A DNA stretch of 64,000 nt, taken from the NCBI RefSeq assembly GCF_050920415.1, contig NZ_CP169309.1; one strand, 5' to 3'. The stretch is from Escherichia coli. Lineage in GTDB: Bacteria > Pseudomonadota > Gammaproteobacteria > Enterobacterales > Enterobacteriaceae. Every line of letters starts with the position of its first letter. Within the stretch, counting starts at the first letter, position 1. This document shows positions 6,001 to 12,000 of the stretch, one piece after another. Made by a program: the position numbers.

Positions 6001-9000
6001 CCCCCATCCAGCGCCGTTTCATGATGGCCGTTAACAACGATCCTGAAGTACCAGAAAGGTTGCACCTTAACTTTGATTTAAGTTACACAGAATCAACGGA
6101 TAAGGGTGCGGCATGAGGCGAAACAGGCTAAAATCCAGGCATCATTTAACAGCTGGAGCATGGAATATGCGAGTTCTGAAAATCGAATGCCCGGAATGCG
6201 GCTCAAAGGCTGTTATTCGTAAAACAAACAGGAAGCACCGGCAGATTGCTGATATTTACTGCGCCTGTTCAGATGTTGAGTGTGGCCACACGTTTGTTAT
6301 GAATCTGACGTTCTCCCACACTCTCAGCCCCAGCGCTAAAACGGGTGATGCGATGGTGCAAAAAATACTGAATGCACTTTCACCCGATCAGCGCCAGATG
6401 GCATTAGACCTACTGAAAGCGACTCCCGCCGCCTGAAATGCCCCCATTCTGGGGGCGTTGCCCTTCCTTTTTAACCATTTCGCGAACCTCTCCCGCAAGC
6501 TCTCCAATCCAGGCCAAAGCAATTGTTTTTTCTCTCTGGTTACTTTCGTAAACATGGGCAATTTTGGCCAATAATTCAATGCGTTCCAGCTGTGCCGACG
6601 CCTCCAAAAGATCCATTTAGCCCCCACAAGCAATAAATAACTGGATATATATACAGTACACCTTAAAGCACGAATTGTGAAACTTAATTTCCTGCCATCT
6701 ACTGACAAATGAATGTGTTACACACACATGCACACCTATAACCACCCCGGCCATAGCTCCTGCAATGGTTCGTTTCGTGTTTCCTTCAACCGCCCATTGC
6801 GGTAAATCAGCGCCCCCTGACCAAATATCAAACCACTACCCCGCAGGAGAATGGCTATTTCTTCATCGGAACCCTCAAAACCCCGACTGCGTAATTCCAG
6901 TTTTAACCGTCTGCGGGTTCCTCCCTCCGTACAGTTATTGACAGAACTCCAAGGGGCGGCGTTGCCGCCAGAAAAACCCGCCTCCGCTGTCGCTTCGGCC
7001 AACTTCGCAACCTTTTGCCACTTAACAAGACGGGTGCAAACTTCTGAATCAGGAACCAAAGGAGAATAAACACCCTGTACGCGCTGCACGTCCTCCGCGT
7101 ATTCGTTGCCCTGTTCCGTAATTTCATAGGCCAGACGAACAACCAGATCACGGCGGGCAACCAGTGCACCGCCCTGCGCCTGGGTATATGCAGCCCAGTC
7201 CCCGACATCAGCAGCGGCCAGAACCGCATCCATTCTGCGATCTGTCAGTACCTGATCCCTCAACCGACGCAGCTCACGCCAGACGGTTACCGGCGCGCCA
7301 CCAATCTGCTGAAACTGGCGAATACGCCAGCGTGAAGCCCACGCGGAAACGGACTTAGCCATATCACGCAGGTTTTCGCCGGTTTCTTCATCCTGTTCAC
7401 CATCCAGCGCAAAACCATCAATATTTTTTGAAATGTATTTCGCGATGTAGCCCGTGGCCGAACCTTTGGCGGGATCGATAGCTTCAACATGAAAACGCGC
7501 CTTCAGCGCCTTTTCAGATTGCAGTTCTTCAGAATCAGTAATTCTGGCGTGATAACAAAGAATATCGCGTACCGTGTCCACGTCCTGCGGACGCATAAAA
7601 AGCAACATATGCCAGTGCGGTGTCCCGTCATGGTGAGGCTCAACAACCCGAAACCCAAAGACATGAATACCCGCACGCGAGATCGCTGCGCGTGCTTTTG
7701 CCCATACGCCACATAAATAGCGCTGAGTATCCTGTGGTGTACTTCCATCCCACTGTGAAACAAAGCCCCCTTTGCTGTGCACCGCATGGAATCGCGATGG
7801 CGCGGTGATGGTGTAAAACTCACCGGCCAGCCCTTCTTCATTGGCCATATCTTCAAATCCTCTCATTCTTACCATTAGTTCACAGCGACGGATCGCCGGA
7901 TTTGCAACGCTGCGGTGCACCATGCTGTCCAGTGCAATGCGCAGCCCTTCATCATTCAGCAGATCAAACTTTTTGAAGAACTCCAGATTCCGCTTTTTCT
8001 GTTCTATCCATTCCTCTAGGGTTTTACGGGATACATAAGCACTGGCCGCTTTTTGTACCTGCCCCACCGCGATGGCCATATGTTCGCGCTGCGTATCACG
8101 CGCACGTTTAAGACGCAGGTACCACCATTCCGGCGCCATCATGCGCAGTATCCCGGATTCCGCCTTACGCGTTTCCAGTTGACCTTCATTGGCCTCATGA
8201 TCAGCCCAGTACGGCGGCTGGTTATTCAACATCAGGCAACACGCACAAAGATGGCGGTATGATTCCAGGGTTCGGCGGTGCAGTTCTCTGGCGTCGTCAG
8301 TGCCGGATTCAAACTGTTCGGTGAAGTCATAAAGTGACTGGGAAATCCAGCCAGATACCTGACCAGCCAGTTTTTTAAGATCAAGACGGTCTAATGACGG
8401 CAAGCGCTCCAGCGACTTACCAAAAGGAAGATCAGCAGCATCAGCGGCCAGAGAGTAACGCGCAGCCACTTTTCGCAGACGAGGCAATACATTCTCGCCA
8501 ATAGTTTTACGCAAGAATGTATTGGCTCGGCGACGCCCGTCACGGCCAGAAAAAAGCTTTTCGTAACGACGGCCAAAATACCCGGCTAACCAGTCGGGTA
8601 TCTCATGAAGGTACTTTGAGCGCCATTCGTAATCCTGCGGGTTAACAGCCCACAGGCGGCGTTCTGTGATAGTCGCGTCTGCCGGTGTGCCTGGTGCGAA
8701 AGTTTCCCGCCTCCAGGCATCAACGGTATAGCATTGTTCATTTATTGCCAGCGTCATGCGCTGGCCTCAGAAGTCGCCGGTAAAGGCCATTTAAGAATCA
8801 GCTCTGCCGCCGTTTTCGGGCTTGCAGCTGCCGCACCGACACTACGCGGCGCATTAACCTTTACGGCGTCAAACCCTGCATACAGGTAATGCACCATTTC
8901 CAGATCGCTGTTTGACGCGACAACGGGAATCCCACGTTCAGCCAGTCGGCGCAGTTTACGCGCCAGCCGCCCCTGATCCATGTGCGAAAAACCGCGCTCA

Positions 9001-12000
9001 TGGTAAGCGGTGAAATTGTCGGCATCAGTCAGATAAGGCGGATCACAGTAAACAACGTCACTCCCGCCCCGAACCAAATCGAGCGTTTCTGAATAGTGGG
9101 CAGTAATGAACGTTGCGCGTTTTGCTTTTTCAGCAAAGGCGCGGATTTCATCAGCGGGGAAATAAGGCTTTTTGTACTTACCGAACGGGACGTTGAACTG
9201 GCCTCGTCGATTGTATCGGCACAGACCATTGAAGCAGTGCCGGTTTAGGTAAAGGAAACGCGCAGCAGCTTCAACGGATTCAGAACCAAAGGATTTACCT
9301 GACTGATTGAAAGCATCACGTACCGCGTAATAGAAAATTGCGCGGCTTTCTTCACCACCTAATGAACCGGCTGTAAACAGGCTCTCCAGTTCATTCAGCA
9401 GCGCATCAGAGTGATACGCCATCGCCTTATAAAGATTAACCAGATCAGGATTCACATCTGCGATCAGATATTCATCATATTCCGTATTCATCATGACGGC
9501 GCAGGAACCTGCGAACGGTTCAACCAGGCGCTTTCCTTCCGGCAAATGGGGACGCAACTGCGGCATAAGGCGGGCTTTGCTGCCCACCCATTTAAGCGGT
9601 GTTTTTATTGCCATGCCGCGCCCCCTTTGCTGCAAATCGCTGCGGCTTCTTCGCGGATTAACTCAACGATTTCCGCTGCGCTTAGACCTTCATTGGCCGC
9701 ATGAGTGGCCAACTTATCCAGACGGGTGGAACACAGATCAGCAGCTGCGGCTTTACCTTCCTGCGTGGCTTTGGTGAGCATGGCCAGCAGGTCAGTGCCT
9801 GATTTTGTTGCGGGTAAATTCTGACGTGTCATGTGCATTTTGGTTTCCTTTAGGCAAAAGAATCCCCGGCCACTTGAACCGTGACCAAAAAATTCAGACT
9901 GTTAATTAGTGAAAAGTGGGTTGTGCTGTGGCGGCTGAATAGTTCGGTGCCGGAATCAGGTGCAACTCATAGGTTGTTCGCCACCACTCCTGGATCAGCG
10001 CTTTTATTTCGCCGACACCAAGCGCTCCAGATGTATAGAAAATCGCACGAATCCCCGCCAGCGCTTCTATCTGGGCTTCTTTGCTTTCCGCTTCGCGATA
10101 GACGCAGCACCAGAAGGCGGCATTTGTCGCCAGCCAGTGACGCGGATTCGTCATGTGCTCGGTGTCATTGAAGAAGAACGGATGCAAAGCAATACGGCCA
10201 TCTTTACTGGCGTTTTTCGCTGCAAACGCTACAGCGTAATTATGCGGTACACCCCATGCTGCCAGTTCAGCCCCTAGTGATTTACCTTCAACCGAAATGA
10301 TGGACATCAGTGATTCCCCTGTTGCTGTAGCTTCTGGACAATATGAGGCGCAATCACCATCTGCACCCCGCTGCTGCTATAAATTGGATGAACCTTCTTG
10401 ATTGGGCGGTTCGCGGTACGTTTCGAAAAATCGCTGTCACGTAAACTGCCGAAACCTTCAAACGTTAACCGCGCCCGTGAAATACCCCGGCGTAGTTGAA
10501 TCATGTCCCGATAGCCCAGACGTTCATAAAGCTCCCGCCAGCAGCATTTGCTTAAGTGGGCTTTGAATACCCCAGCCCCTGAAGTAACCGCAGCAGCATG
10601 AAGCACGACACCGCGCCACTCTGGTGTTAAGTTGTCCCACCAGTTCCCCGCATCGCTGTAGGCTGGGTTGATCTGAAGGCGCATTCTTTTGCAATGCTCC
10701 AGTCCGCGCTTTTGCTGTTCCTGGCTAATCGCCATAACGCCCCCTATAGCCCCATCAGACGACGCCACCACGGGCGGCGCGGCTGCTGGCCATTGAATTT
10801 GTACATGTGGCTAGGGTTCCAGCGCTGACCGTTCGGCAGTTCTATCCAGCCCGTTGAACCACTCGGCAGTTGCATGGCTGGTGATTCTTTTTTCAGGTAA
10901 GTAACAAACGCTTTCATGGTTCTCCCTCACATCAGGCCGGTGGCGTTGGTTGTGACCAGATCCACCGCAGCGGCCAAAACCGGCGCAGAGTGAATACGGC
11001 TTTCAACGGTATAAGCCAGCACGGATAAGCTACGGATTGCATCGCGGGCGCGATCCAGAATTTGAGTACGGCGGGCGGCGGTCATATGGCCAGTTGATAC
11101 GGCTTCCCCAGCAATTGCGCCCACACTGGCTGTGGCGCTCAGTGCGCACAGTTGCATGTTGCCTTCTGTTGCATTGTTCACCGGTACGGATGGAAGGCAG
11201 TTAATCTGCCCCAGCATCCCATCCAGTAAACGCGCATCTTCGGTGTAATCCGTGATAGCCAAAAGTTCATCACAGGTCAGGCGGTGCGGTTGCGCTGGGT
11301 TCAGTTTATTACGCAGGATCTGTGGCCTCATACCAACGGCAGCTGCCACATCTTCAAGATTGTGCTCAATTGCAAATGCTCGGCAAGCCGCATCAAAGTA
11401 CGCATGTTTAGAGGTCTGGTAATCAAACATTGTTTGCCTCTCCCTAATCCGTAGGATGGATTACGCGTTAAGCGAAATGTCACATTCGCTTAACGCCTGA
11501 ATAGTGAGCGCGGCCATGTTGACTTCGACCAGGCCTTTCTTCTGCTTACCCTTCGGCTTAATAGGTAATTTTCCGTATTCGATCAGGTTCCTGGCGGTTT
11601 CTTTGTTGGTACCAGTACGGCGGCAATACTCGTCTAAAGGCAGGTATGGTTCTGGGATGATGATTGTAATGTTCGGACGCATAAGGCAAACTCCACTAGT
11701 TTACCGATAGGGCAATATCGGTATCTATTAGTCAGTATCTAACAACGAGGCTAGGTTAATTAGACAATATCTAAATGTCAACATCACTTAGATTTAATCT
11801 AATTCCTTGATGGGGTAAATGGGAAGATTTCGAATTGATCCGGAGACAGACAGCGCTCCCGTTCTTGATAGAATCATTGAAGCTTACGGCTTTACTCAAA
11901 AGCTACAGCTTGCCGAACACCTTGATATTGCAGCTAGTTCGCTTTCGTCTCGATACAAACGAGGCGGACTACCTGCGGACATAATGGTCAAGTGCATGGC

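Follow-up and report, generated by a model that had tools for sequence, protein, structure and literature searches.

Here we describe a DNA methyltransferase gene, dam, in a 64,000-nucleotide stretch of Escherichia coli contig NZ_CP169309.1 (assembly GCF_050920415.1; hereafter the window). By homology, its product is a Dam-family (D12 class) N6-adenine DNA methyltransferase, and the gene, an orphan (solitary) methyltransferase gene as judged from its neighbourhood, sits by gene order within the early lytic operon of a 186-like (P2-family, Peduoviridae) prophage (Table 1). In the reading that we favour, at a probability of roughly 60%, the product would be an orphan GATC methylase that is made lytically and supplements host Dam in order to methylate phage DNA fully before packaging.

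Table 1 Features of the dam locus, in window coordinates (position 1 is the first nucleotide of the window)
Feature	Position	Strand	Evidence or remark
CI repressor (186 type), divergent	11819..12403	+	PF07022 E=7e-23; PF16452 E=5e-30
Promoter-proximal part of early lytic operon	9906..11682	-	apl, cII, fil and two ORFs
apl/cox-like gene	11682-11461	-	phrog_575
cII	11430-10927	-	PF06892/phrog_101
fil	10917-10744	-	phrog_7623/816
ORF without known function	10771-10307	-	phrog_33841
ORF without known function	10307-9906	-	phrog_3935
DUF2732 family gene (77 aa), upstream of dam	9605..9838	-	PF10809 E=4e-12; phrog_128; RefSeq homologue annotation
5' extension of mechanical ORF, outside dam	9615..9635	-	3' end of DUF2732 gene
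dam CDS, predicted Dam-family N6-adenine DNA methyltransferase	8754..9614	-	286 aa plus stop; ATG at 9614
AdoMet-binding motif I, F34-A-G-S-C38	codons 9501..9515	-	alignment
DNA-recognition hairpin region, F128...Y147	codons 9174..9233	-	EcoDam alignment
Catalytic motif IV, D191-P-P-Y194 (numbered from ATG)	codons 9033..9044	-	sequence
gpA, replication initiation endonuclease, downstream of dam	6736..8757	-	PF05840 E=4.4e-106

The dam product matched PF02086 (MethyltransfD12) from profile position 1 to 252 (of 253; E=3.3e-66; 224 bits, cut-off 22), the NCBIfam model TIGR00571 'dam' (E=3.2e-81; 273 bits, cut-off 115) and phrog_56 'DNA methyltransferase' (E=9e-97), and its top PADLOC model was 'orphan methyltransferase' (oMTase; E=6e-92). 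It aligned over its full length with the crystal structure of E. coli Dam (EcoDam; PDB 2G1P; E=1.4e-60), with 41% identity across 275 aligned positions; matches this strong (E about 1e-60) to the solved structures of EcoDam settle a Dam-like fold. With EcoDam (PDB 2G1P, 4RTJ) the window protein shares the D12 class, the alpha group fold, the DPPY motif, the GATC contacts and orphan status. However, EcoDam is the housekeeping GATC methyltransferase, whereas the window protein is phage-borne and encoded in a lytic operon. Its score against the housekeeping Dam equivalog NF008152 (260.9 bits) falls below the cut-off of 441, and for this reason we place the gene in a Dam-family clade of phages, apart from the orthologues of chromosomal dam.

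The catalytic and DNA-reading residues agree with this assignment. Motif IV, the DPPY motif named in the first-pass annotation, is present at residues D191-Y194, is invariant across the clade and aligns with D181-Y184 of EcoDam; together with the PF02086, TIGR00571, PADLOC and EcoDam matches and the conserved GATC-contact residues, it upholds that annotation's call of a Dam-type adenine methyltransferase. Motif I departs from the FxGxG consensus, reading FAGSC in the window protein as against FVGAG in EcoDam, and Cys replaces the last Gly in 14 of the 14 clade members examined. The acidic AdoMet-ribose residue (D54 in EcoDam) is conserved as D53. Because FAGSC is fixed across the clade and dN/dS is about 0.1, this form of motif I is probably functional, and tolerated within the clade. 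The roles of the residues with which EcoDam recognizes GATC have been described (PMC4417163): K9, Y119, N120, L122, R124, P134 and Y138 of EcoDam correspond to K8, F128, N129, L131, R133, P143 and Y147 of the window protein, and all are identical except the intercalating Y119, which is replaced by Phe with retention of the aromatic ring. Since the GATC-reading residues are conserved, GATC is the predicted target. Relative to EcoDam, the window protein carries two insertions, one of 5 and one of 6 residues, in a helical region (residues about 82-114) as well as the changes Y119F and R137K, and the central segment of the clade is mosaic, with two alternative versions.

The minus-strand ORF reported at 8754-9635 in the first-pass annotation is indeed uninterrupted (293 aa counted from TTG), but its start requires correction, as translation almost certainly begins with the ATG at 9614 and not with the TTG at 9635. 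This start is indicated by a Shine-Dalgarno sequence, GGGGG, at 9625-9621, 6 nt before the ATG and inside the end of the DUF2732 gene; by the RefSeq start of a 99.3%-identical homologue, which is the same ATG; and by the N-termini of the aligned homologues, 13 of 13 of which read MAV/MAI/MTI-KTPLKW. With this start, the last 10 nt of the DUF2732 gene overlap the start of dam, and at the other end the dam TGA and the gpA ATG overlap by 4 nt as ATGA (8757-8754). Because these gene ends overlap, dam is probably translated in step with DUF2732 and gpA.

The order of genes on the minus strand is apl-cII-fil-orf-orf-DUF2732-dam-A, with cI divergent. The proposed location of dam inside the early/replication operon therefore holds, and the gene directly abuts gpA (PF05840); it is not downstream of gpA, as had been stated, since on the minus strand, which carries both genes, transcription reaches dam (9614 to 8754) before gpA (8757 to 6736), which places dam upstream. 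Elsewhere in the prophage, which is inserted between mntR and mntS of E. coli, an ogr/delta gene was matched by phrog_603, and the portal, terminase and integrase genes were assigned from homologous RefSeq annotation. In the lysogen, the operon that includes dam is expected to be silenced by CI. A consensus scan of the minus strand found no sigma-70 promoter before dam, a scan that also missed the expected early promoter pR. A terminator-like hairpin at 9891-9863, upstream of DUF2732-dam-A, is strikingly conserved in sequence; its folding energy is no better than that of shuffled sequence (z = -0.93).

No restriction endonuclease was found by profile matches or PADLOC among the neighbours of dam, which are DUF2732 and gpA. 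In the prophage itself, this search covered the portion inside the window, the tail half lying beyond it. E. coli JNE25-001 carries a complete prophage that is 95% identical, and this full-length relative has no annotated restriction enzyme and no nuclease besides gpA. The earlier statement that the gene has no restriction partner is thus confirmed both next to dam and in the JNE25-001 prophage. A type II restriction-modification system was considered and rejected, no linked nuclease having been found in the window part of the element or in the JNE25-001 prophage.

The gene is an intact, well-conserved accessory gene that is common to many enteric P2/186-type prophages and is already annotated in public genomes. 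The JNE25-001 gene (WP_097761521.1; RefSeq name 'DNA adenine methylase') has 99.3% nucleotide identity to it and lies in the same DUF2732-dam-replication endonuclease arrangement. Family members occur in Salmonella, Citrobacter, Enterobacter, Klebsiella, Cronobacter, Leclercia and other Enterobacteriaceae. Comparison with phage ESSI2_ev129 gave a dN/dS of 0.10 (60 synonymous and 24 non-synonymous differences) and comparison with the JNE25-001 gene a dN/dS of 0.21, values from which dam is judged to be under purifying selection. Since the ORF and motifs are intact and dN/dS is 0.10, we rejected the reading of dam as a pseudogene or inactive gene.

The closest known counterparts occupy the same genomic slot. 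Cronobacter phage ESSI-2 has a dam gene there with 83% amino-acid identity, and the dam genes of Escherichia phages ESSI2_ev129, ev040 and ev015 (Peduoviridae) have about 90% nucleotide identity to the window gene. In both ESSI-2 and ESSI2_ev129, dam lies directly upstream of the gene for a nicking/replication protein. The ESSI-2, ESSI2_ev and JNE25-001 genes are all annotated as DNA adenine methylase or DNA methyltransferase. The slot of ESSI2_ev129 carries additional cargo (an exonuclease subunit, a small ORF and a second methyltransferase), whereas that of the window prophage holds DUF2732-dam-A only. A literature search on Dam proteins of P2-like phages gave incidental mentions only.

Dam homologues are encoded by many phages (PMC12707154), and the better-known examples, P1 Dmt and T4/T2 Dam, are far more distant in sequence than the ESSI-type genes. 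Both are orphan GATC methyltransferases whose presumed role is to secure the methylation of phage DNA. P1 dmt has 38% identity to the window gene (tblastn), and the T4 Dam structure 1Q0S matched the window protein with E=1e-13. P1 Dmt is a larger, bifunctional protein. Cleavage at P1 pac needs methylation, and dmt is required for packaging in Dam- hosts; the role of T4 Dam in vivo is still unclear (PMC12707154). The window phage group, by contrast, is not known to depend on methylation for packaging or any other step. Orphan methyltransferases of mobile elements are typically silent in lysogens (PMC12707154). M.EcoMIV, from prophage Phi2 of E. coli ST131 strain EC958, is likewise a prophage-borne D12-class orphan methyltransferase, a likeness drawn from its description; it is a predicted Dam homologue and is not transcribed in the ST131 lysogen (PMC4659465).

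In the mechanism that we propose, the operon would be CI-repressed in the lysogen, and synthesis of Dam, alongside that of gpA, would begin only upon induction or infection. The enzyme would use S-adenosylmethionine to methylate the adenine of GATC at N6, topping up the limited host Dam during rapid phage replication. Phage DNA would then be fully GATC-methylated before packaging, and the progeny DNA would be 'host-like': it would resist methylation-sensitive restriction enzymes that cut GATC, and would escape the activities of MutH and SeqA on un- or hemimethylated GATC. The phage may in this way cease to depend on how much Dam its current enterobacterial host makes. GATC specificity, lytic-only expression and benefit to the phage are the parts of this account that we infer.

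An unlikely alternative is that Dam regulates the phage life cycle, the phage needing its own DNA to be GATC-methylated for a step such as origin use by gpA, the timing of late or early promoters, or packaging, and carrying dam to make sure of that step. Through the ATGA overlap, translation of dam is probably coupled to that of the replication initiator gpA; related phages share the dam-A arrangement; and of the 10 GATC sites in gpA, two, at 7239 and 7254, are separated by 15 nt. P1 dmt, with its Dam-methylated pac sites, provides a precedent (PMC12707154). However, GATC is neither avoided nor enriched: the prophage has 64 sites (about 60-62 expected), gpA 10 (about 8) and the early operon 22 (about 19-22), the count in dam is likewise at chance, and close pairs elsewhere occur at the expected rate. 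The chance-level counts thus give no sequence signature of methylation-controlled sites, nor of GATC restriction pressure. The intergenic switch region between cI and apl contains no GATC, the nearest sites, at 11581 and 11837, both lying within genes. In addition, the gene was found, at an identity of at least 80%, in only 26 of 5426 E. coli genomes, and many P2/186-type phages, as known from P2 and 186, have no dam.

We consider it improbable that the protein is an anti-restriction enzyme of different or relaxed specificity that methylates other sites instead of GATC, or besides it, and thereby shields phage DNA from several restriction systems. Orphan methyltransferases of mobile elements are often promiscuous (PMC4659465, PMC12707154), and the NF008152 score of 261 bits, well under 441, together with the 5- and 6-residue insertions, Y119F and R137K, would fit such an enzyme. 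All known base-specific GATC contacts of EcoDam are nevertheless conserved, including R124, whose loss relaxes specificity, and the 41% identity to EcoDam extends over the full length of the alignment. It is still more doubtful that FAGSC, Y119F, the insertions and the mosaic segment loosen or extend the specificity of the enzyme, or that they give it a part in counter-defence; methylating phage DNA rapidly ahead of packaging could, for instance, overcome a defence system of Enterobacteriaceae that senses methylation status. If that were true, the enzyme would be no mere duplicate of host Dam, and strong purifying selection on it in a phage of a Dam+ host would be explained.

The first-pass annotation had suggested that the enzyme could change host GATC-dependent processes or protect phage DNA, both of them usual proposals for phage Dam homologues. 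In its first form the idea amounts to lysogenic conversion: the prophage would express an epigenetic factor, and the resulting shift in GATC methylation of the host would in turn affect its gene expression, mismatch repair or timing of replication. Dam overproduction perturbs E. coli, and an internal promoter is possible, since the promoter scan also missed the expected pR. A Dam-like prophage methyltransferase, PamA, alters the phenotype of Staphylococcus aureus (PMC13076061). Against this, dam sits midway along a lytic operon that CI represses, and its reading frame overlaps that of either neighbour; host GATC methylation is already almost complete, and the Dam homologue of the E. coli ST131 prophage is untranscribed in the lysogen (PMC4659465). 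On these grounds alteration of host processes is less likely, indeed quite improbable as the role of the gene, and protection of phage DNA is the more plausible of the two suggestions.

It is very improbable that dam is an inactive remnant, or that it belongs, as the modification component, to a restriction-modification system with its nuclease elsewhere: although FAGSC departs from the consensus and part of the prophage lies beyond the window, the ORF is intact with all catalytic residues present and a dN/dS of 0.10, FAGSC is fixed across a large conserved clade, the full-length related prophage has no nuclease besides gpA, and the best PADLOC match is an orphan methyltransferase.

The host, E. 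coli, has its own Dam, and the phage enzyme consequently looks redundant. Why phages keep a redundant GATC methylase under purifying selection in Dam-proficient hosts is a general puzzle that applies to all phage Dam homologues. The window copy is a routine accessory gene with no special handle on that puzzle, and its value lies mainly in correct annotation.

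The product of dam belongs to the Dam family of adenine methyltransferases. It matched the whole Pfam profile of D12 class N6-adenine DNA methyltransferases (PF02086; E=3.3e-66, 224 bits, cut-off 22), the NCBIfam Dam family model (TIGR00571; E=3.2e-81, 273 bits, cut-off 115) and PHROG phrog_56, 'DNA methyltransferase' (E=9e-97), and its top PADLOC match was the 'orphan methyltransferase' model (E=6e-92). The nearest solved structures are those of the E. coli chromosomal Dam (EcoDam; 2G1P, 4RTJ and others; E about 1e-60), followed by DpnM (E=1e-34) and T4 Dam (E=1e-13). At 261 bits, the product fell below the NCBIfam equivalog cut-off for chromosomal Dam (441 bits) and thus represents a phage clade of the family rather than a host gene copy. 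The first-pass annotation of a Dam-type adenine methyltransferase in this prophage was a real observation and a right identification, requiring two corrections, to the start codon and to the order relative to gpA.

The first correction concerns an ORF proposed at 8754-9635. On the minus strand it is indeed uninterrupted, with 293 amino acids counted from a TTG. However, a GGGGG lies 6 nt ahead of an ATG at 9614, the RefSeq gene of E. coli JNE25-001 (99.3% identical) uses this same ATG, and all 13 aligned homologues begin MAV/MAI/MTI-KTPLKW. The gene thus spans 8754-9614 and encodes 286 residues; 9615-9635 is the 3' tail of the upstream DUF2732 gene. As to the second, dam had been placed downstream of gpA, but both genes are on the minus strand and dam is transcribed ahead of gpA. 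Its assignment to the early/replication operon holds (see table). There is a 10-nt overlap of the DUF2732 stop with the dam start, and ATGA holds both the stop of dam (TGA) and the ATG of gpA; such overlaps are a usual mark of co-transcription, and translational coupling is probable from this arrangement.

Features of the prophage early region and of other loci in the window
Feature	Coordinates	Strand	Remark
apl/cox-like	11682-11461	-	first gene in transcription order
cII	11430-10927	-	
fil	10917-10744	-	
two ORFs of unknown function	10771-10307, 10307-9906	-	
DUF2732	9838-9605	-	upstream of dam
dam	9614-8754	-	
gpA	8757-6736	-	downstream of dam
cI	11819-12403		186-type repressor; divergent from the apl to gpA order
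KAP-family P-loop NTPase	12461-14265	+	GC about 32%; between cI and integrase
SopA/NleL-like islets	56326-58623, 59107-60759, 35498-37510	-, +, -	GC 30-34%
SUKH-4 ORF	49003-49488	-	between ybhN and ybhL

A promoter scan of the minus strand from 6400 to 12000 returned none; this range includes the necessary site of the early promoter, likewise missed, so an internal promoter is compatible with the scan. The 67-nt intergenic segment ahead of DUF2732-dam-gpA (9839-9905) is near-invariant among the window, JNE25-001 and Escherichia phage ESSI2_ev129, even beside diverging flanking coding sequence. It contains a terminator-like hairpin (9891-9863, -), whose stem differs once in JNE25-001, where G-C replaces a G-U pair; the hairpin folds with an unremarkable energy (z = -0.93, not significant). 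The slot between DUF2732 and gpA carries variable cargo: in the window prophage dam is its sole occupant, and in ESSI2_ev129 (L002 4972-7850) dam is accompanied by genes for a DNA polymerase exonuclease subunit and a second DNA methyltransferase, as well as by a small 'RNA-binding' ORF.

On either side of dam lie genes for a 77-residue DUF2732 protein and for gpA, an HUH-type replication initiator (PF05840, E=4e-106); a PADLOC search of these neighbours found no restriction component. An annotated restriction enzyme is likewise absent from the complete, ~95% identical prophage of JNE25-001, on which the orphan status partly leans because the tail half of the window prophage lies outside the window. 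Both results agree with the earlier claim that there is no restriction partner. Compared with ESSI2_ev129, dam shows 60 synonymous and 24 non-synonymous differences (dS 0.38, dN 0.038, dN/dS 0.10), and compared with JNE25-001, 3 and 2; these substitution patterns clearly point to purifying selection.

Window Dam and EcoDam are 41% identical over 275 aligned positions. The catalytic DPPY motif, also reported in the first pass, is D191-Y194 (codons 9044-9033), and the acidic AdoMet-ribose ligand is kept as D53. Motif I reads FAGSC, compared with FVGAG in EcoDam; its Cys is invariant in 14 of 14 clade members examined, which points to a clade trait rather than decay. In EcoDam, R124 touches the fourth-position G:C pair of GATC, L122 and P134 make base contacts in GATC reading, N120 hydrogen-bonds bases, K9 and Y138 read the first base pair, and Y119 intercalates between the inner A and T (PMC4417163). 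Window Dam has the same residue at all of these positions except that of Y119, which is Phe, retaining the aromatic. GATC is thus the target predicted from residue comparison. The clade is also a mosaic, with almost no variation in the N- and C-terminal thirds and two versions of the central segment (residues about 60-120, window about 9435-9255) that differ by the presence or absence of 6- and 3-5-residue insertions; this suggests recombination inside the gene.

Megablast located dam in 26 of 5426 complete E. coli genomes, in each of which it adjoins a DUF2732 gene and bears the annotation DNA adenine methylase, and in 10 phage records, including Salmonella phage S.Kent 1-2-1, Escherichia phages ECO95 1-6-1 and ESSI2_ev129/ev040/ev015 and Cronobacter phage ESSI-2; in annotated phage records it lies just upstream of the replication/nicking gene. 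A protein search returned >6000 relatives at E <=1e-30, the best 120 of which are 64-94% identical, nearly all called DNA adenine methylase, and come from Salmonella, Citrobacter, Enterobacter, Klebsiella, Cronobacter, Leclercia, Kosakonia and Yokenella. Homologues were found by tblastn in 495 phage records, among them P2-like Klebsiella prophages (about 50% identity), P1 dmt and phi80 damL. Among P2/186-type prophages this accessory gene is widespread and previously annotated.

The host backbone belongs to E. coli and, over 39600-47800 and 55200-61000, matches strain MFDS1022581 at 100% identity. In that strain the mntR-mntS attachment site is empty (NZ_CP169399.1, 25750-26070), which makes the prophage a recent acquisition of the lineage; its integrase-side junction is at about 15435/15436, just upstream of mntS. 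A phage enzyme specific for GATC formally duplicates the Dam that E. coli already possesses. GATC counts are at chance in the prophage part (64, with 60-62 expected), gpA (10 versus 8) and the early operon (22 versus 19-22), and the cI/apl switch region has none.

Other loci were observed alongside. PADLOC matched the KAP-family gene to a candidate defence system, PDC-S49 (E=3e-106). Deletion of one base from a homopolymer (A-run 12692-12698; A7, compared with A8 in the intact 594-residue JNE25-001 homologue) breaks the gene into two ORFs; it may be a pseudogene or a slippage switch, or the break may reflect a sequencing error. At the far end of the JNE25-001 prophage, outside the window, a three-gene module adjoining mntR (L005 16196-18055; ATP-binding, STAS-like and PIN-domain proteins) is possibly defence or toxin cargo. 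Two low-GC islets in the backbone encode SopA/NleL-like HECT-type effector-like proteins, one with pentapeptide repeats and SopA_C (E=1e-20), the other with SopA_C alone (E=1e-14); a neighbouring 550-residue ORF had no Pfam or PADLOC match. The yvcK-uvrB islet is complete in just 24 of 5426 complete E. coli genomes. The SUKH-4 ORF (immunity-protein match, E=6e-6) belongs to a stretch of 41% GC (about 48.8-51.2 kb), two further ORFs of which had no Pfam match.

Many phages encode Dam homologues, and for T4 Dam no clear in vivo role has emerged (PMC12707154). A less likely reading than the one favoured below is that the gene serves a specific requirement of the phage life cycle, as in P1, whose dmt is required for packaging in Dam- hosts (PMC12707154). 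Relaxed specificity would have to be reconciled with the GATC-reading residues shared with EcoDam, the Phe at Y119 being the one change among them. Lysogenic conversion of host epigenetics would call for expression in the lysogen; mobile-element orphan methyltransferases are usually silent there (PMC12707154), and a Dam homologue of an E. coli ST131 prophage showed no transcription in its lysogen (PMC4659465). An inactive remnant or part of a restriction-modification system sits poorly with the dN/dS ratio, the uninterrupted ORF with its DPPY and the lack of a restriction component among the neighbours. We favour a predicted active GATC N6-adenine methyltransferase that would be produced with gpA, solely upon relief of CI repression. 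While phage DNA synthesis surges, it would supplement host Dam and bring the genomes to full methylation by the time of packaging; progeny DNA could then resist methylation-sensitive GATC endonucleases and escape MutH and SeqA acting on un- or hemimethylated GATC. The phage would also no longer depend on how much Dam is available in each of the many enterobacterial hosts that harbour its group.
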